Shown piece by piece: positions 10,022 through 49,083 of a DNA stretch of 64,000 nucleotides. How positions within the stretch are numbered: the first letter of the stretch is position 1; each line of letters begins with the position of its first letter. The position numbers were made by a program, and so were the translations under genes. The stretch is from Sphyrna mokarran (taxonomy: Eukaryota). The stretch covers positions 21,576,001 through 21,640,000 of the forward strand of contig JAGIQG010000014.1 of NCBI GenBank assembly GCA_024679065.1, read 5' to 3'. The notes beneath the pieces were generated by a model that saw nothing but the letters and a program-made list of their open reading frames with translations, searched no databases and was not told the origin of the DNA.

Positions 10022-10350
10022 ACCATAGAGTCTCTATAGTGCAGAAGGCCATTCAGCCATTGAGTCTGCACCGACTCTCTGGAAGACCATATTCAACACC
10101 CTCACCCTACCCCTGTAATCCTGAACATTTAGCATGGCTAATCCACCTAACCTACACATTTTGACACACCAAAGGGTAGCATAGGCAATCCACCTAACTT
10201 GCATATCTTTGGACTATTAGAGGAAACCAGAGCACCCAGAGGAAACCCATGCAGACACAGGAAGAATGTGCAAACTCCACACAGACAGTACCCCAAGGCC
10301 AGACTTGAACCTAGGCCTCTAGCACTGTGAGGCTCCAATACTAACCACTG
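10022..10350 (-). mobile_element. V-SINE/HE1-type SINE
   Basis: GGAAACCAGAGCACCCAGAGGAAACCCATGCAGACACAGGAAGAATGTGCAAACTCCACACAG is the reverse core; a tRNA-like head lies at ~10350. Confidence 0.85.
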
Positions 10351-10650
10351 TTATGAATGAATATTGGCTTGCCACGTATTGAAAATCCAGTGCAGCCTGT
10401 TCCCTTGTCACTTCTAAAAACACATTGCTGCAGAAGCATTTCCTGGACAAACTCTAGTAAAACTGATCCTATACAATTAACTATCGAGACAAATATGGTG
10501 CAGCGTTGAGATTTTAGATGTTTTTCTGTTCTGAGTCCTAGGCTCGGGAAGAGAGAAATGATGAAGAGACTCTGAATAGATCAGGACCTCATTGGAGTGA
10601 ATAAGCAAAGTAAACCAGATATTTGCTAATTTAATAATGGATCAATAATA

Positions 10651-10697: not shown

Positions 10698-12311
10698 ATG
10701 GGCTACTGTGGATTGAGGAACGAAGTGCAGATTGCATGTGTTCTGGGTGCCATCATCAGTTTCTCTTCCCCTATCACTTATGGAGCTAACATTCTGGTCG
10801 TACCTATTGATGGAAGCCATTGGATCAACATGAAGATTCTAATTGAAGAACTGAGATGCCATGGTCACAACATTACTACCCTTTATTCATCCAAGGCTTG
10901 GTACATCAAAGAGAGTCCTGATCTCTATCAATCAATCACTGTGCAATTGCAGGGTGGAACTACCAATTTTGATGATTCAAGTGGAATACAACATTTTCTT
11001 CATAAGTTGCTGACAGCCTTACGACGTGGTCTTACACCATGGGCTTTTATTCAAGTCCAGTATCAAATGGTTTCCTTCCTGCGTGAATGGCACCTTTGGG
11101 CTGGAGAGTTCATTACTAGAATTTTTGAAGATGAGAAATTGTTGAAACAGCTCAAGGACGCAAAGTTTGACTTAGTACTCACGGATCCCGCTCTTGGTAT
11201 CGGCTCAATGCTTGCCTATTATTTGCGAGCTCCTTTGGTTTACAATGTTCGATGGATCACGAGGGGAGAGGCTCATTTTCTCTTTGCTCCATCACCACTC
11301 TCCTACGTCCCTCTACGAGGGTCATGTTTGACGGACAAGATGAGTTTTCTCCAAAGAATTCAAAATGTTTTACAGCATCTCTTTGAGCTCTTCATTTCTG
11401 AGTTTTTTATTCACCCTATATACAATGAAGCCTGCAGACGTTACCTGGGCACAGACATAGACATCAAGACTATTCTTCTCCAGGCAGATGTGTGGCTGAT
11501 GAGAGTAGATTTTGTATTTGAATTTCCAAGACCAACCATGCCAAACATTGTGTACATCGGAGGTTTCCAATGTAAATCACCAAAGCCTTTGCCTGTGGGG
11601 CTTGAGGAGTTTGTGCAGACCTCAGGGAAGTACGGGATTATCGTCATGTCTCTAGGGAGCCTCGTCAACTCTTTGCCGCTGAACATTACAATGAAAATAG
11701 CGGAGGCCTTTGCTCAGGTACCTCAGAAAGTAATTTGGAGACACAATGGAGAGATTCCTCCTAATATAGCCAATAACACACTACTTGTAAAATGGATCCC
11801 TCAGAATGATCTGCTGGGACATCCTAAGACACAAGCCTTCGTTGCGCATGGAGGGACAAATGGAATTTATGAAGCCATTTACCATGGGGTGCCAATCGTT
11901 GGTCTCCCTCTGTTTTATGACCAGTTTGACAACTTAATTAGGCTTAAAGTCCGAGGAGCGGCCAAGATAGTTGATGCTGCGACCATGCAGTCAGCGGATC
12001 TACTGCAGGCACTCAATGAAGTCATAAATGACACATCCTATCGGGCTAACATGCAGCAACTGTCTGCTCTCCACAGAGACCAACTGGAGTCCCCAATGCA
12101 GAGAGCTGTTTTCTGGATTGAATACGTGGCACGGCACAGAGGGGCAGCCCACTTACGCTCTGAATTTTACCATCTCCCCTGGTACGCCTACTATTGTGTA
12201 GACGTGGTTGCTGTGTTCTTGTCTGTGTTTCTAATTGCTGCAATGATGATCGTTTTAATCTTGAAGAAATTTTGTAATGTCGCAGGGAAGAAAAAACAAA
12301 AAATTCAGTAG
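10698..12311 (+). CDS. ugt5: UDP-glucuronosyltransferase, single coding exon, UGT5-like (537 aa)
   Basis: Signal peptide; catalytic His in DGSHWINM; LTDP; UDPGT signature WIPQNDLLGHPKTQAFVAHGGTNGIYEAIYHGVPIVGLPLFYDQ; C-terminal TM helix; KxKxx ER-retrieval end (KKKQKIQ). YNVRWITRGEAHF and ADVWLMRVDFVFEFPRPTMPN resemble fish UGT5. The ATG is in strong context (AAAATGG); the ORF track starts two codons earlier at TTG. UGT identity is secure, the UGT5 subfamily is less so. Confidence 0.9.
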   Translation: MGYCGLRNEVQIACVLGAIISFSSPITYGANILVVPIDGSHWINMKILIEELRCHGHNITTLYSSKAWYIKESPDLYQSITVQLQGGTTNFDDSSGIQHFLHKLLTALRRGLTPWAFIQVQYQMVSFLREWHLWAGEFITRIFEDEKLLKQLKDAKFDLVLTDPALGIGSMLAYYLRAPLVYNVRWITRGEAHFLFAPSPLSYVPLRGSCLTDKMSFLQRIQNVLQHLFELFISEFFIHPIYNEACRRYLGTDIDIKTILLQADVWLMRVDFVFEFPRPTMPNIVYIGGFQCKSPKPLPVGLEEFVQTSGKYGIIVMSLGSLVNSLPLNITMKIAEAFAQVPQKVIWRHNGEIPPNIANNTLLVKWIPQNDLLGHPKTQAFVAHGGTNGIYEAIYHGVPIVGLPLFYDQFDNLIRLKVRGAAKIVDAATMQSADLLQALNEVINDTSYRANMQQLSALHRDQLESPMQRAVFWIEYVARHRGAAHLRSEFYHLPWYAYYCVDVVAVFLSVFLIAAMMIVLILKKFCNVAGKKKQKIQ

Positions 12312-12603: not shown

Positions 12604-15600
12604 CATAGAACATAGAACATAGAACACTACAGCACAAACAGGCCCTTCGGCCCACAAGTTGTGCTGAACACATCAAAACCTACCCAGCCATAGACCTATC
12701 TATAACCCCCAATCCCATTGGATCCCATATACTCATCCAGAAGTCTTTTAAGCGAGTTCGCCTCGACCACCACTGACAGCAGCCGATTCCATTCACTCAC
12801 CACCCTCTGAGTGAAAAACTTTCCCCTAGCGTCCCCTCTGTACTTGCTTCCCTGCACCTTAAATCTGTGCCCTCTCGTCGCGACCATTTCAGCCCTGGGA
12901 AATAGTCTCTGAGAGTCCACCCTATCTATTCCTCTCAACATCTTGTAAACCTCTATCAGGTCGCCTCTCAACCTTCGTCTCTCCAGGGAGAACAGTCCCA
13001 GCTCCCTCAACCTGTCTTCATAAGGCATGCCTCCCAATCCAGGCAACATCCTTGTAAATCTCCTCTGCACCCTTTCAATAGCTTCCACGTCCTTCCTATA
13101 GTGAGGCGACCAGAACTGCGCACAGTACTCCAAGTGTGGTCTGACAAGGGTCCTATAAAGCTGCAGCATTACCTCCTGACTCCTGAACTCAATCCCTCGA
13201 TGAATGAAGGCCAGTACACCGTAAGCTTTCTTAACCACATCCTCCACCTGGGAGGCCGATTTGAGAGTCTTATGGACCCGGACCCCAAGATCCCTCTGCT
13301 CTTCCACACAGCTAAGACTCCTACCTTTGATAGTGTACTCATTCATCCCGTTGGATCTGCCAAAATGGACCACAACACATTTATCCGCGTTGAAGTCCAT
13401 CTGCCACTTCTCCGCCCAGTCTTGCATCCTGTCGATGTCATGCTGCAACTTCTGACATCCTTCCAGACCATCCACAACACCACCGCCCTTCGTGTCATCG
13501 GCGAACTTACTCACCCATCCCTCCACTTCCTCATCCAGGTCATTTATGAAAATGACAAACAGCAAGGGTCCTAGAACAGATCCCTGCGGCACTCCACTGG
13601 TGACCGACCTCCATGCAGAAAAAGAGCCACCCACAACCACCCTCTGCCTTCTGCAGGCAAGCCAGTTCTGGATCCACAAGGCCAAAGCCCCTTGGATCCC
13701 ATGGCCTCTCACCTTCTCAAGAAGTCTTGCATGTGGGACCTTGTCAAATGCCTTGCTGAAGTCCATGTACACCACGTCCACTGCTCTTCCTTCGTCAATG
13801 TGTTCAGTCACATTTTTGAAGAACTCAATTAAGCTTGTAAGGCACGACCTGCCTTTTACAAAACCATGCTGACTATTTCTAATCAACCTAAACTTCTTCA
13901 AATGCTCGTAAATCTTGTCCCTCAGAAGCCTCTCCATCAGCTTACCAACCACTGAGGTCAGACTCACCGGTCGGTAATTTCCAGGACTATCCCTGTTCCC
14001 TTTCTTGAAAATAGGGACCACATCCGCAATCCTCCAATCCTCCGGAACCTCTCCCGTCTCCATCGACGACGCAAAGATCATCGCCAGGGGCTCTGCAATG
14101 ATATCCCTCACCTCCCACAATAACCTGGGGTACATCCCATCTGGTCCCGGAGACTTGTCTATCTTGATAGCATTTAAAAGTTCTAATACATCCGCTTCCT
14201 TAATATCTACATACTCAATCTTTTCAGTCTGCTGCAAACTTGTAGTGCATCCTCCCAGATCACTTTCCACTGTGAATACTGAGGCAAAGTACTCATTAAG
14301 CACCTCTGCCATTTCTTCCGGTTCCATACAGACTTTTCCCCCTTCACCTTTTATAGGTCCTATCCCTTCTCTTCTCATCCTTTTACTTTTCACATATTTG
14401 TAGAAGGCCTTGGGATTCTCCTTAATCCTACCAGCCAAGGCCTTCTCATGACCCCTTCTGGCTCTCCTAATTTCTTTTTAAGCTCTCTTCTATAAGCCTT
14501 ATACTTCTCTAGATCCCCAACATCTCCTAGCTCTTTGAACCTTTTATACACCTTTCTTTTCTTCCTGACTATGTTCACCACAGCCTTCGTGCACCACGGT
14601 TCCCGCGTCCTACCAAAACCTCCTTGTCTCACCGGAACGTTGTCGTGCAAAGCTCCAGACAAGCATTCCTTGAATATCTGCCACCTTCCTTCTGTGCTTT
14701 TCCCCAAGAACACCTCCTTCCAGTTTATTCGCCCCAACATCTGCCTGATGTCTTCATATTTCCCCTTATTCCAGACAAACACCTTCCTAGCCTGCCTGAT
14801 CCTATCCTTTTCCAATGCAAGGGTGAAGGAGATAGAATTATGATCTCCATCCCCAAGATGCTCTCCTACCGAGAGATCCATCACCTGTCCTGGTTCATTA
14901 GCTAGTACCAGGTCCAGTACAGCCTCTCCTCTCGTAGGCTTGTCCACGTGCTGTGTCAGGAAACCCTCCTGAACACACCTAACAAACTCCTCCCCATCCA
15001 AACCCCTTACCCTTGGGATATTCCAGTCGATGTTTGGGAAATTGAAGTCTCCCATCACAACAACTCTGTTATTTCTACATCTGTCCAGTATCTGTTTCCC
15101 TATCTGCACCTCAACTTCCCTGTCACTATTGGGCGGCCTATAGAATACACCCAGCAACGTCACCGACCCTTTGCTATTCCTAACTTCCACCCACAGAGAC
15201 TCCGTAGACATTCCCTCCTCGGTATCCACCTTCTCTGCAGCCATGACACTGTCCCTGATCAACAGTGCCACTCCACCACCTCTTTTGCCTCCCTCCCTGT
15301 CCTTCCTGAAGGATCTGAATCCCGGGACCTGTAGTACCCAGTCCTGTCCCTGAGACATCCAAGTCTCTGTAATGGCCACCACATCACAATCCCAAGCAGC
15401 AATCCACGCCCTAAGTTCATCCACCTTATTTACTACACTCCTGGCATTAAAATAGACACAGCTCAGTCCCTCAGACTGGACATTTCCCTTCTCCCCCACG
15501 CGTCTAACCTGCCTCTCATCCTGCCTAGAGTCCTTCCCTACCTGGGAGCTAACTTCCTTGCTCCCAGTCTCCACATCACTATTCCCTCCCCCTAACCTTT

Positions 15601-15655
15601 CTAGTTTAAAGTCCCCCCAGTAGCCCTAGCCAGTCTTCCCGCCAAGATATTTACC
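12604..15655 (-). mobile_element. Young CR1 LINE, 5'-truncated inside ORF1, with near-complete ORF2 (APE endonuclease + RT) broken by one frameshift
   Basis: ORF 14390-15574 has YFNARS, AITETW, FYRPP, MGDFN and GDHN. ORF 12696-14438 has KSPGPDG, YRPVSLTS, GVPQGSVLGP and KFADD. The frameshift is near 14470, the (TTCTATG)n tail is at 12604-12626, and the ORF1 end NILAGRLARATGGTLN* is at ~15600-15650. Confidence 0.95.
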
Positions 15656-16250: not shown

Positions 16251-16899
16251 AAACTTTTGAACTGCCTTTTCCAGAAGGAAAAAAATACAGTAAATATTTG
16301 GAAATGACTAGTCTGAACTGGAATTTGGTTTTAAGACATACAAATGTGCTGGTTAGCTGAATTAGCCATGGTAAATTGCCCCTCAGTGTCTCTCAAGATA
16401 TGTAGGCTAGGGAAATTAGCCACGGTAAACGTGTGGAACTACGGGGATAGAGTAGAGAGAGGGCCTGGATAATTCCTTCAGAGAGCTCAAGTTGGGTTGA
16501 ATGGCTTCCTTCTACACTGTAAGAATTCTATGATTCTAAGACCAATTCAGACCAATACCGGTCATTTCTCAAGATTTACTGTTTGTTTTTCTGGTTGGCC
16601 GAGCAATTGAACCCTGGCTCCTGAGCCTGGAAAATGTGCTACTTTCTCAGCCTCCTCAATCCCCTAGTATGCTGCAGCCATTATTCCAAGACATTATGCT
16701 TGATATTATCTCATCTATCATGCTACTGAACAAAGATTACAGTGTCCAAGGTGGTGGAGCAAGTACATTAGCAAACCGGAGTGAGATTTCCAATTCTCCA
16801 CCACCATCATACTCATATGAAAGGAGGAACTGATGAGAAACCATTGGCATTTTCGAGCACTTGTTTAATTTTTGTGGGTAGGAATTAAGATAGCTTTGA

Positions 16900-17110
16900 G
16901 TGGCATCTCGGTCTTTTGGCCAAGATGCAAATGAGATCAAACCTTGGAGGAGGAGCTATGCCTACTCCAATCAGCTTGGAGCATGTAGGTCAAGCCCAAG
17001 ACAGAAGGTAAGAGCCTGCCTTGTCAGCTTGGATCGGGAATGTCTCAACTTTTTGAGATTCTGAATTGGACTTGATTGGATTGAATTGGAATTAAAAACA
17101 AAAAAAAAAT
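16900..17110 (+). mobile_element. Putative SINE-like element with U2 snRNA-derived head and poly(A) tail
   Basis: GTGGCATCTCGGTCTTTTGGCCAAGAT matches U2 nt 1-27 (ATCGCTTCTCGGCCTTTTGGCTAAGAT) at 22/27. The element ends in ATTAAAAAC plus an A-run. Confidence 0.55.
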
Positions 17111-17869
17111 TCTGTTGTATTTTTCAGAAACAGCGACTGGATTTGAATCTTAGCCCTGACTAATCAGACACATGTTGCCCATTGGTTGTGAAAGATACAA
17201 AGTAGGAGAGTCCAGCTATCACAGTGTGTGCCTTCATGAGATGGAGGCTGATAATGCAGGGCTCACCGCAACGTGACAGTCATTGGAATTAGGAATCTGC
17301 TATGCAGCTACGTGTGGGAGTAAAAGTGGGGTTTAGCTGCCTGGCTTTGGGCTGTTTTTATTAAAATTAGGGAATAATCAGGAGCTTTGGCAGCATTGGA
17401 AGGTGAGGAATGGAGGCGGGGAGGGGGAGGATCAGACTGCAGGATCTGGTTCCTGGACAAAATGGTGGCCCAGAGTTTTGTGCCTGGGGTGGTGCACAGA
17501 GTTGGGAGACTTCCTAACTCTGCAAATCCAGGATTTCAAAATGCCTTCTCACAAGTCAGATTTCTAGTTGTTGAAGGGGCAGTTGGGGGCAGGTGGATTT
17601 GGGTTGAAAAAGGAGTTCAGGCAGGTGTCCATGGAATGAGTGAAGCATCTGTTGAGTACAGAGGCAGACTGAGCCCAAAGTCTGCCTCTGTGCACTAGCA
17701 CTGTCTTCAAATAACTTTAAGAAAAGATTAAAATAAAAACAGCTTCCATGTGCTTCATTCATGCCAACTTATACCCTCAAAATCCACTCCCCCATGGCCT
17801 TTCATACTCTTTCTGCAAACCCATGCCCCCACCCACAGCGCTTACCCCCTTCATGCCAATCCATCTAGT

Positions 17870-22139: not shown

Positions 22140-23390
22140 TCCCTGATGGTGATGGTATGCTGCACCCACCATAACATTCCTTTGAGGATGAGGATAGAGC
22201 AGATAGGCTGAGGGCAAGGATGAAGAGTAGTTAACAGTGCTATCAAGTGGCACTTATTAACAAATAAATTGCTCACAGTGCTCAGTTTGAGCTCTGCTGG
22301 GGCCATTTGGTTCCTGACCTCATTACAACCTTGGTCCAAACATGCTGAACGCAAGTGGTGAGGTGACAGTGGCTGTTAAGACAGCATTTGGTCAAGTTTG
22401 GTACCAAGGAGTTCCAGCAAAACTGAAAGCAACAGGAATCAGTGGAAAAGCTCTCTACTGGTTGGAGCCAAATCTAGTGCAAAGAAAGGTGATTGTGGTT
22501 GTTGGAGGTTAATCCTCTCAGTCCCAGGATATAGCTGCAGGAGTTCCTCAGGGTTGTACCCTGAATGTAAGCATCTTTAGCTGCTTGGTCAATTGTTCTC
22601 CTCCATCGTAAGGTCAGAAGTGGGGATGCTCATCGATGATTAGCATCATTCATGACATCTGATACTGAAGCAGTTTGTGTCCAAATGCAGCAACACTTGA
22701 CAACATTTGAGCTTGGGTTGATTGCAACAAGTAGCCGTCATGTCACTTAAGTGCCAGGCAACAACCATCTCCAACACGAAAAAATTGAACCTTGAAATTC
22801 AACAGCATTATAGTTGTTCAAATCCTCCACTATCAATATTTGAACCAACCATATAAAAACTGTAGTTAACAGAGCAGGACAGAGGCTGAGAATTTTGCAG
22901 TCACTTCCTGACTCTCAAAAGTTTAACAACCATCCATTATGCATAAACGAACAATGTGTTGTAATATTCTCCACTTTTCTGGATGAGTGTGGTCTTTGAG
23001 AAGATCAATGCCATCCAGGATAAAGCAGCTCATTTGAATGGCACTCCATCCACTACTGATATACTATAGCAGCAGGATTTATTATCTACAAGATGCTCTA
23101 CCGTAATTGGCCAAACCTCCTCTGGCACCACCTTCCAAACTCATGACCTCTACCACCTCAAAGGATAAGGGGAGCAGACACATGGGAATAGTATCAAATA
23201 CAAGTTCTCTTCCAAGCCACTCACCATCCTGACTTGGAAATACATTTCTGCTTCTTCAATGTCACTGGGTCTAAATCCGGGAACTTACTCCGTAACAGCA
23301 CTATGGGTGTATCTGCATCAGATAGACTGCAGCAGTTCAAGAAGGCAGCTCACAACCACCTTCTCAAATGGGCAGCAAATGCTGGTCCCT
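22140..23390 (+). mobile_element. Degenerate CR1/L2-group LINE 3' region
   Basis: GCAGGAGTTCCTCAGGG (GVPQG-like) at ~22540 and tail GAAGGCAGCTCACAACCACCTTCTC. Related pieces at ~19690-19900(-), 21405-21630(-), 36870-37410(-), 40870-41100(-) and 63140-63425(+). Confidence 0.65.
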
Positions 23391-37519: not shown

Positions 37520-39130
37520 GTCAAAAGCAAGTTAATGAAAGAAAGCCAGCATGGATTCCTTAGGGGAAAATTGTATTTAATTAACTTCCTTGAGTTTCTT
37601 GAAGAGGTGACAGCAAGATGTGAGGAGGGCAATGCTGTTAATATAGTGTACATGGACTTCAAAAAGGCATTTAATTTAGTTTATTTTTATTAGTGTTCCA
37701 AGTTACTGTGAAAATCCCCTATTTGCCACACTCTGACACCTGGATACACTGAAGGAGAATTTAGCAGGGCCAATGCACCTAACCAGCAGTACTAACCACT
37801 GTGCCACCATACACTCCCCATACTCTCATTGAGTAAACAGGGAAGTAGCCACCCAGATGCCACAGAGGCAGCATGGTGACACAGTGGTTAGAGTGTCACA
37901 ACACCAGGAACCCGAGTTCAATTCTGACTTCGGATCACTTTCAGTGTGGAGTTTGCACATTCTCCCTGTGTCAGTGTGAGCTTCCTCCAGGTACTCCAGT
38001 TTCCTCCCAAGATGTGCGGTTAGTTTGATTAACCATGGAAAATTATTCCTTAATGTCAGGTGAAGAGCAGGATAAACACGTGGGGTTACAAGGATAAGGT
38101 CTGGGTGAGATTGTAGTCGGTTCAGACTCCTTGGGCCAAATGGCCTCCTTCTGCACTAAAGGAATTCTATCATGCTATGAGATAAGAAATTTGAATAATC
38201 ACTACTGTCTCTCAGCCAACGTTCCTCAGTTTGGTGGGAGGTTTGTGGTAGAGCTCCCCAGGGATCAGTGTTGAAATCCTTGCTTTTCCTGATTTACGTT
38301 AATGACCTGGGCCCTGGTGTACAGGACAAAACTTTATAAAACTTGGAAGCATTGTAAACTGTGGGGACAATAGTGTAAATTTGGTGAAATGGACAGACAG
38401 GTGGCAGATCAGGTTTAATGTAGAGAAATATGAAATGATCCATTTTGGTAGGAAGATCGTGCAATATAAGATAACAATTCTAAACAGGAGCAGAGAGACC
38501 AGAGTGTTTATGCGCAGGGATCTTGGGGGCATGACAGGTTGAGTGCAGAGTCAATAAAGTATCCTGGGCTTAATTAATAAGACAGAGAGCACAAGAGCAA
38601 AGATGGTTGTTAAACTTATGTGTAAAACTCTAAATTTGTCTCCAGCTGGAATATTGCATCCAATTCTGGCCACTGCATTTTGGGAAAAATGTGAGGGCAT
38701 TGCAGATAGTACAGAAAAGAATGATTCCAGGGATGAGAAACTCTGATTGATTGGAGAAGTTGGGACCATCTTCCCTGGAAAAAGGGTGAGAGAAGATTGG
38801 ATAGCGCTGTTCAAAATCGAGAGGTTTGGACAGAACAACTAAGAAGAAAATATTCCCACTTGTAGAAGGATTGCGAACAAGTAGGCACAGATTTAAAGTA
38901 ATTAGTAGAAGAAGCAAAAATGCATGAAGAAGAACTTTTTCACACGGCAAGTGGTGAAGGTCTGGAATGCACTGCCTGAGAGGTGATGAAGGCAGCATCA
39001 GTGGGAACATTGAAAAAAATGGATCATTATCTGAAAAGAAAGAAAGTGCAGCTTTATGGGGAGAAGCAGGAAAAACGCACAAAGCAACTGTTCATTTGGA
39101 GAGTTGGTGCAAATACGATGGGCCGAATGC
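37520..39130 (+). mobile_element. Degenerate CR1 RT region interrupted by two HE1-type SINEs (~37680-37810 minus, 37870-38172 plus)
   Basis: SQHGF and YMDFKKAF-like coding at 37545-37670, PQGSVL-like at ~38255, and C-terminal CR1 motifs to ~39130. Confidence 0.7.
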
Positions 39131-48002: not shown

Positions 48003-49083
48003 AAGGACTTAAACTTCTGAATATCCCTCTAATTTTTCTTTCCCTTTAATTTTTTCTGATCCCACTCAACCATCCATATCTTTTGTGCTTTCAGTATCCC
48101 CTCTGACCTTCCACTTCCTGATGTTAAACAATCAGCTTTCAGAAAAAAATACCTCAGCTTTGTCCTCTAACACCTTCACCACAATTAATTCCATCACCTT
48201 CACCTCCACACCCACTTATGAGTGAGCAGTCTTTCCCTGACCAGCAGGCCCTTCCTCAGAATTCCCATTTCACATGGATGCCTTCTTGTCTTTCATCCTC
48301 TCTTAGATCTTTCATTGGGAGCTGTTGGTATGATATGGGGCAGTACAGTGGTTAGCTCTGCTGCCTCACAGTTCCAGGGATCTGGGTTCAATTCCTGGCT
48401 TGAGTCACTGTCTGTGTGGAGTTTGCACATGCTCCTCAAGTCTGCATGGGTTTTCTCATAAGAAATTATGGTTCCTTCCCATAATCCAAAGATGTGTGGG
48501 TTAGGATGATTGGCCATGCTAAATTGCCCCTTAGTGTCAGGGGATGTGTAGGTTAGAATGATTAGCGGGTTAAATGTGTGGGATTGTGGGGTTAGGGCCT
48601 GGTGTGCAGACTTGATGGGCCAAATGGCTCCTTTTGCACTGTAGGGATTCTATGCTTCTATTCTACAGCATCCTCCTTGTTAACAGATAGAGATGTTCAG
48701 AAAGCAGTAAGCTAGAATGAGTGAGGGGAACAGAGAAACTGAGACAGCCAATACCATACCAACAGTTCCCAATGAAAGATCTAAGAGAGAATAAAAGGCC
48801 AGAAGAAGTGATCCGTATGGAATGGGGATTCTGAGGAAGGGCCTGCCAATCAGGGAAAGACTCCCTTACTCAAAAGTGGGCGTAGGGATGAAGGGGATGT
48901 AATTAATTGCGAGGGAGTAAGGGGACAAAGCTGAGGTTTTTTTCTGAAAAGTGATTTTTCAGCATCAGGAAGTGGAAGGTCAGAGGGGATTCTGAAAACA
49001 CAAAGGATATGGCCGGTTGAGTGGGATCAGAGAAAATTAAAGGGAAAGAAAAATTAAAGGGATATTCAGAAGTTTAAGTCCTT
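48003..49083. mobile_element. Foldback element with ~335-bp imperfect inverted arms, with an HE1-type SINE (48336-48665, +) in the loop
   Basis: AAGGACTTAAACTTCTGAATATCCC... (48003-48336) is the reverse complement of ...GGGATATTCAGAAGTTTAAGTCCTT (48751-49083) along its length. Confidence 0.85.

Follow-up and report, generated by a model that had tools for sequence, protein, structure and literature searches.

A multi-copy, A-tailed shark element with a U2 snRNA-like 5' part is probably a SINEU-like retroposon

A short element of about 207 nt in a 64-kb stretch of shark DNA (the whole stretch analysed, hereafter the window) belongs to a multi-copy, interspersed, A-tailed and non-coding family with a U2 snRNA-derived 5' part. 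Thousands of contigs with varying 3' flanks carry this family, in line with the proposal of the initial annotation. We consider it probable that the family is a SINEU-like non-autonomous retroposon, which would have originated independently in sharks and would be moved by a poly(A)-type LINE of the Tx1 clade; the partner and the promoter are parts of this reading that we infer. A second abundant family, in sharks, would mean that SINEs have originated from snRNAs repeatedly in vertebrate evolution. Its start site, cap, polymerase and partner LINE would be determinable from the many copies, the several genomes and the RNA data.

The 5' region of SINEU elements comes from U1 or U2 snRNA, and the 5' region of the shark element appears by sequence comparison to be U2-derived. 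The U2 reference was L016, a vertebrate-type U2 gene from a metagenome contig, which gives 190.7 bits with the Rfam U2 model. Against this reference, the identity reported in the initial annotation was reproduced: positions 16900-16926 agree with U2 nt 1-27 at 22 of 27 positions without a gap. With one extra G allowed, 16903-16933 aligns with U2 nt 4-33 in 26 identical columns of 31 (local score 35). This score was reached by none of 2000 dinucleotide shuffles, and the highest U2 score elsewhere in the masked window was 27. The alignments of the family members begin at 16902/16903, which is the start of the U2 segment. The differences from U2 keep and extend stem-loop I, as had been claimed: in the hairpin at 16903-16928, pairs form at 10 of 11 positions (one is G-U), and the three outermost pairs are absent from the Rfam structure. 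The match stops at nt 33, which we take to be the start of the branch-site recognition arm. The earlier description of a likeness ending near the branch-site region, followed by a body unlike U2, is sound, since 1278 of 2000 shuffles of the body score equally well against U2. An origin of hairpin unit 1 (Table 1) from U2 stem III, suspected by eye, was rejected because 599 of 2000 shuffles were as good under lenient scoring.

The comparison with the Rfam U2 model (RF00004) that had been proposed as a check gave weak scores. The element aligns with the model at 12.6 bits (E 2.1, model positions 7-26) and, in a second scan, at 10.1 bits (model positions 1-35), but these scores are far below the gathering score of 46. 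The same hairpin gave 9.1 bits with Rfam U7, and the Rfam scan of 3 kb returned no U2 hit. A U2 gene in the sense of RF00004 would have the branch-site arm, stem IIa, the Sm site, stems III-IV and at least 46 bits; the element gives 10-13 bits and covers at most model positions 1-35.

Table 1. Features of the element copy and its 5' boundary in the window
Feature	Position	Strand	Basis
U4-like 5' addition of the window copy (tentative), overlapping the first three bases of the element	16892..16905	+	U4 nt 1-7 and 11-17
U2-derived segment (U2 nt 4-33), stem-loop I extended to 10 pairs, UUUU loop at 16914-16917	16903..16933	+	26/31 columns, 0/2000 shuffles, pair table, Rfam
Hairpin unit 1, with a 10-pair upper stem, a small internal loop and a lower stem that has one bulged G	16935..16982	+	Pair table
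Hairpin unit 2: lower stem and internal loop as in unit 1, other upper stem	16988..17035	+	Unit comparison, repeat D1
Third hairpin	17042..17059	+	Fold, pair table, family letters at 17052 and 17059
Short, imperfect tandem repeats of the 3' end, GGAATT among them	17062..17093	+	Repeat D3; family depth high in bin 17066-17091
A-tail with one C, the genuine 3' terminus of the family	17094..17109	+	Loose ends at 17097-17111

The body consists of twin hairpin units, a third hairpin and short repeats (Table 1). The similarity between hairpin units 1 and 2 was matched by 36 of 2000 shuffles, and the spacing of repeat D1, 53 nt, equals the 53-nt period of the two units. An inverted repeat (16944-16953/16961-16970) lies in unit 1. 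The family-majority letters at 16941 and 16981 mend two broken pairs of unit 1, and those at 16989, 17005 and 17019 restore or upgrade pairs of unit 2. Among the family-majority substitutions listed inside the element (n=8), seven restore or upgrade a pair and one is in a loop, as judged with a pair table that was drawn by hand after the variants had been seen and with the listed variants only; one of the seven, at the 17049-17052 pair, closes merely a 2-nt loop. This pairing suggests a master RNA with more complete pairing and a decaying copy in the window. It does not speak for selection on the window copy, which is an old, decaying insertion without sign of function. Whole-element folding of this decayed copy is little above shuffles (z -1.63, 9/200), and Pfam gave no hit on the one stop-free segment of at least 60 aa that overlaps the element.

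At the 3' end, the short ATTGG/ATTGA repeats and the A-run that had been noticed are both present. The ATTAAA motif fared differently as a separate poly(A) signal, because its final three letters belong to the tail. A 3' poly(A) tail, as in SINEU, is thus seen both in the A-run of the window copy and in the position of the loose ends of the family.

The dispersal of the family was analyzed with four of 24 listed public runs, aligned to positions 16650-17400 at 80% likeness: X1 (organism A), X2 (organism B), X10 (organism C) and X17 (organism H, guessed to be RNA). The X1 flanks are nearly identical to the window, and X1 is possibly from the same source sample. The numbers of aligned contigs were 4586, 4799, 2344 and 129 in the four organisms, respectively, most of them 90-95% like the window copy. 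In X1, X2 and X10, the summed contig depth over 16910-17091 was 58,000-248,000, as against 4-16 in the flanks, and the median depth ratios of element to flank were 13,400, 15,500 and 26,400, respectively. A figure of about 10^4 is a rough order of magnitude, as summed contig depth is not copy number. The repeated sequence is confined between 16884 and 17117, and nothing outside is repeated. The loose ends on the 3' side, at 17097-17111, have a median length of 255 and an agreement of 0.33-0.45 in X1, X2 and X10; such long, disagreeing ends are as expected for dispersed copies with variable A-tails. As in SINEU, there are many dispersed copies with one structure: the depth is about 10^4 times that of the flanks, the majority letters are common to four organisms, and the 3' flanks are unrelated.

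A single-copy body, which the initial annotation had named beforehand as a refutation of its proposal, is excluded by contig depth and count. The same data bear on the reading of the element as a lone truncated U2 pseudogene, or a chance match beside unrelated DNA. The window holds no second copy of the element and the Rfam score is low, as this reading would have it, but thousands of contig variants span both head and body with sharp ends in four organisms, and we regard it as hardly credible. A pattern scan for the head-body junction found no match in metagenome contigs; three matches in viral contigs and one in prokaryote genomes, each 21-22 nt long and not extending further, were discarded as due to chance. 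In one X1 contig, 17108 is followed by 16913, so that two units of the element stand head to tail elsewhere in the genome. Tandem copies are also frequent in SINEU (PMC4494074).

The 3' flanks also bear on whether the element inserts into U2 genes, as the initial annotation had considered. The LINEs Keno (Tx1) and Utopia (RLE) are followed on the 3' side by U2 from nt 39 (PMC4640811). The shark element could be a U2-targeting non-autonomous relative, with a U2 piece that belongs to the target gene as its 5' half, and its likeness does stop at nt 33, near the nt 38/39 site of Keno and Utopia. However, neither the flank in the window nor the 3' loose ends of the family are U2, the 3' flanks disagree among copies, and the altered U2 piece moves with the element to thousands of sites. 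Targeted insertion is a very unlikely explanation of the family; at most it could be the origin of a master copy.

The 5' end of the family extends beyond the U2 segment. Among the loose ends listed, those at 16902/16903 were found in 46, 28 and 22 contigs of X1, X2 and X10, respectively; they are short, with an agreement of 0.71-0.79. In their 30-letter consensus, the letters from -28 to -1 are identical across the three runs and form a leader, in which a 6-bp hairpin is followed by AATTTTT and then by a linker rich in A. At -30, each of the three runs has another letter. This difference suggests that the unit begins near -30, and a longer upstream part is still allowed by the 30-letter consensus. 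Loose ends at 17015 (41, 44 and 28 contigs) arise because a one-base insertion clips many copies there. Since the leader-end counts resemble those at 17015, the leader of about 28 nt is probably common in the family. U2 is therefore probably near, not at, the very 5' end of the full-length element. Nine leader letters are the same as a stretch at the U4 Sm site printed in PMC13253345 (a comparison by eye, with no control), and U2 has a U-run similar to that of the leader. The leader itself may thus be snRNA-like.

It is worth considering another interpretation of the shared upstream sequence, in which the element is the 3' UTR end of a longer or internally deleted, Tx1-like LINE. The copy in the window would then be a 5'-truncated fragment and the U2 piece an internal relic, for example of an ancestor in a U2 gene. 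Sequence shared upstream of 16903 in 46, 28 and 22 contigs would be natural for such a LINE, a structured 3' end with poly(A) also fits, and Tx1 LINEs exist in sharks (PMC8455134). On the other hand, the three leader consensuses diverge at -30, some contigs (records 9 and 19) are long upstream of 16903, possibly with unique flank, and an element of the Keno type would be expected to carry a U2 5' piece on its 5' side, not its 3' side (PMC4640811). We consider a LINE tail unlikely.

The copy in the window has no leader, and the U2 piece is its head; the leader motif of the family is absent from the window at up to three mismatches. In place of the leader, all 14 letters of 16892-16905 match the U4 5' primer shown in PMC4148344, with one 3-nt gap, and PMC13253345 gives the same U4 5' end. 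Scores as high were found in 2 of 4126 window zones and in 11 of 5000 conditional controls, for a match noticed post hoc with about ten snRNA ends to choose among. The depth is at flank level in the bin 16858-16883, just upstream of the U4-like stretch. A U4-derived 5' addition on the window copy is suggestive only. Such an addition would parallel the U1 additions on single SINEU-2 copies (PMC4494074).

The sequence GGAATTAA occurs at 16881 and at 17088, the positions given in the initial annotation, but it does not serve as a target-site duplication: the second copy precedes the A-tail and lies inside the high-depth stretch of the family. A systematic search for a duplication adjoining the ends gave 5/7 at best, which 362 of 400 random flanks equalled. 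Two other candidates were rejected, namely 16883-16891 with 17108-17116, which agree at only 6 of 9 positions, and the T-rich pair 16862-16873 with 17113-17124, which agree at 10 of 12 with a score that 35 of 400 random flanks reached in a narrower search range.

The age of the insertion can be estimated from other organisms. In a contig of organism B (record 32), the 3' portion of the element is joined to the 3' flank known from the window, with 32 other letters and 11 gaps in 353 positions. A second contig of organism B (record 25) runs from the 5' flank into the first 14 nt, which is too short for bridging, and in organism C the evidence for a shared locus extends just to the tail (record 16). 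Since organism B has the same insertion locus, the insertion is older than the split that corresponds to about 9% flank divergence. The element is an old, fixed copy present at the same locus in a second organism. An insertion common to species is a possible presence/absence marker for shark phylogeny.

The proposed transcription has to be weighed against a polymerase III SINE, in which internal A and B boxes would overlap the U2-like hairpin and the first GATCAA stem, and the U2 likeness would be secondary or partly due to chance. A scan with consensus motifs placed a B-box-like 9-mer at 16935 and, at 16917, a loose A-box; the family letter at 16989 makes a second B-box-like 9-mer 59 nt past the A-box (by eye), and the Rfam U2 score is weak. 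Such boxes are common, however: the window contains 19 matches to the B-box-like motif and 66 to the loose A-box, while the strict A-box has no match in the element. No tRNA was found, the U2 match is above all shuffles, the GATCAA letters are accounted for by base pairing, and a T4 run lies just ahead of the A-box. T4 runs can be read through in certain SINEs (PMC4758252). Taken together, these facts make a polymerase III SINE improbable. SINEU elements have an internal oligo-T without a recognisable polymerase III promoter; the shark element has its T4 at 16914 together with the box-like matches that are common in the window. In PMC4494074, the transcription of SINEU is left open, and snRNA genes are said to have no internal promoter. 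Polymerase II is preferred here because the T4 loop argues against polymerase III, an argument also made for SINEU (PMC4494074).

For the SINEU-like retroposon that we favor, the full-length unit would be about 225 nt plus the A-tail. It would comprise, in order, the leader of about 28 nt with its small hairpin and Sm-site-like U-run, U2 nt 4-33 with a stronger stem-loop, the twin hairpins, the third hairpin, the short repeats and poly(A). In the proposed mechanism, U2 nt 1-33 would have been captured into a master, which would be transcribed by polymerase II from an outside promoter and mobilized by a poly(A)-type LINE. Tx1 would be the natural candidate partner, since the whale shark is reported to have Tx1 and to lack full LINE1 (PMC8455134). 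Reverse transcription of the window copy probably ended at the U2 hairpin, or jumped there to U4 RNA.

A bolder version of this mechanism is that the family mimics snRNAs. A master RNA that has the Sm-site-like leader and the reinforced U2 stem-loop I, and lacks the branch-site arm, would be transcribed by polymerase II, as snRNAs are, and would then go through snRNP assembly; the RNA would be Tx1-mobilized, and single copies would acquire 5' ends from snRNAs (U4 in this copy). The snRNP assembly would protect the RNA and bring it back to the nucleus, where it would meet the Tx1 machinery and real snRNAs. We regard this version as rather doubtful. If it is true, SINEU-type elements would have arisen a second time, independently, among vertebrates. 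The shark family, of about 10^4 copies, would also be the first for which transcription and maturation follow a concrete route that can be tested.

The initial annotation took a Tx1 relic in the window to show that a possible partner clade is present. No such relic was found by tblastn, which detected only CR1/L2-type relics in the window; the queries were CR1 proteins and L1/Tx1 peptide motifs, a choice that makes the search insensitive to Tx1. Pfam analysis of 296 of the 315 stop-free segments of at least 60 aa showed only UGT and CR1 domains above the cut-off, the 19 omitted segments comprising two frames of low complexity and, for the rest, alternative frames of the UGT and CR1 ORFs. The 3' end of the element was also compared with the CR1/HE1-like tails in the window, with a best score of 28 against a shuffled mean of 26.4 and maximum of 33.

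Several other features of the window were observed. A young CR1-type LINE at 12699-15625 (- strand) encodes an endonuclease and a reverse transcriptase in two long frames and has a TTCTATG-type tail. It is inserted directly 3' of the stop codon of an intact, single-exon UDP-glucuronosyltransferase (UGT) ORF at 10698-12311 (+ strand; 537 aa), the protein of which is 90% identical to that of Carcharodon and 84% to that of Rhincodon. A reverse-transcriptase relic at 22363-22593 (+ strand) is 32% identical to the CR1 copy and probably belongs to another LINE lineage. An abundant SINE-like repeat with a CR1-type tail, which we take to be HE1-like, occurs at 16340-16540, 10037-10351, 37868-38180, 48336-48661 and many other places. 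Two inverted copies of about 340 nt, at 48003-48339 and 48748-49083, are 85% identical and separated by 400 nt; a non-autonomous DNA transposon could have such arms.

In other eukaryotes, six metagenome contigs (L009, L019, L041, L058, L065 and L118) contain the 5' end of U2 up to about nt 28-42, after which the sequence is unrelated; they may be truncated retrocopies or junctions of U2-headed or U2-targeted elements. Contig L067 (1-1760) is an array of U2 head fragments: the U2 stem-loop I motif matches nine times within its 1760 nt, although Rfam gives nothing at the gathering score. In contig L128, a U2 gene is broken in the branch-site arm by about 70 nt with a GC start and an AG end, like a spliceosomal intron. 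An intron-like insert in U2 has a fungal precedent.

No description of a shark snRNA-headed SINE was found in the open literature searched, to which Repbase, Dfam, subscription journals and the supplements of genome papers do not belong. Given its abundance, the repeat probably already has some label in de novo libraries. Known shark SINEs such as HE1 and SacSINE1 are tRNA-headed, and HE1 has a CR1-type microsatellite tail. The element differs from tRNA-headed SINEs, as it has no tRNA (Rfam included) and no strict A-box, and its tail is unlike the CR1 and HE1-like tails in the window. Unlike HE1, it ends in an A-tail, and it does not resemble the CR1 and HE1-like copies found there. HE1 and SacSINE1 are the two shark SINEs named in the spiny dogfish genome paper (PMC10468316), and the element resembles them in being a short interspersed shark element.

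With Keno and Utopia (PMC4640811), the element shares a U2 break point near the branch-site arm. Those elements are autonomous, whereas the shark element is non-coding and dispersed and has no U2 on its 3' side.

The closest parallels are the SINEU elements, which Kojima (2015; PMC4494074) reported in crocodilians only, with none outside. They are described there as having short U2 heads, poly(A), internal oligo-T and template-switch 5' extensions, with target-site duplications sometimes absent (PMC4494074). At its 5' end, SINEU-3 has about the first 32 nt of U2, comparable to the end at nt 33 in the shark element; unlike the shark body, which has no U2 likeness, it has an extra 83 nt from the middle of U2 (same paper). 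Moreover, 313 of 347 SINEU-3 copies lie in Mariner-N4, whereas the 3' flanks of the shark element vary. A target preference of the Mariner-N4 type, which SINEU shares with a Tx1 family in crocodilians, is not found at a flank agreement of 0.33-0.45, a value at which a 13% preference like that of SINEU-2 would escape detection.

The shark element is most similar to SINEU-1J and SINEU-1 (PMC4494074): they share a short U2 5' piece, a body of other origin, poly(A), an internal oligo-T, thousands of copies and 5' additions of snRNA pieces, and for neither has a LINE with a common 3' end been identified. Unlike these elements, the shark element has a leader of about 28 nt before U2 and a twin-hairpin body, its possible addition is from U4 rather than U1 or U2, and no common target element was seen among its copies. 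As it does not show the Mariner target preference, we do not file it as a member of SINEU; an origin independent of the crocodilian SINEU is more likely.
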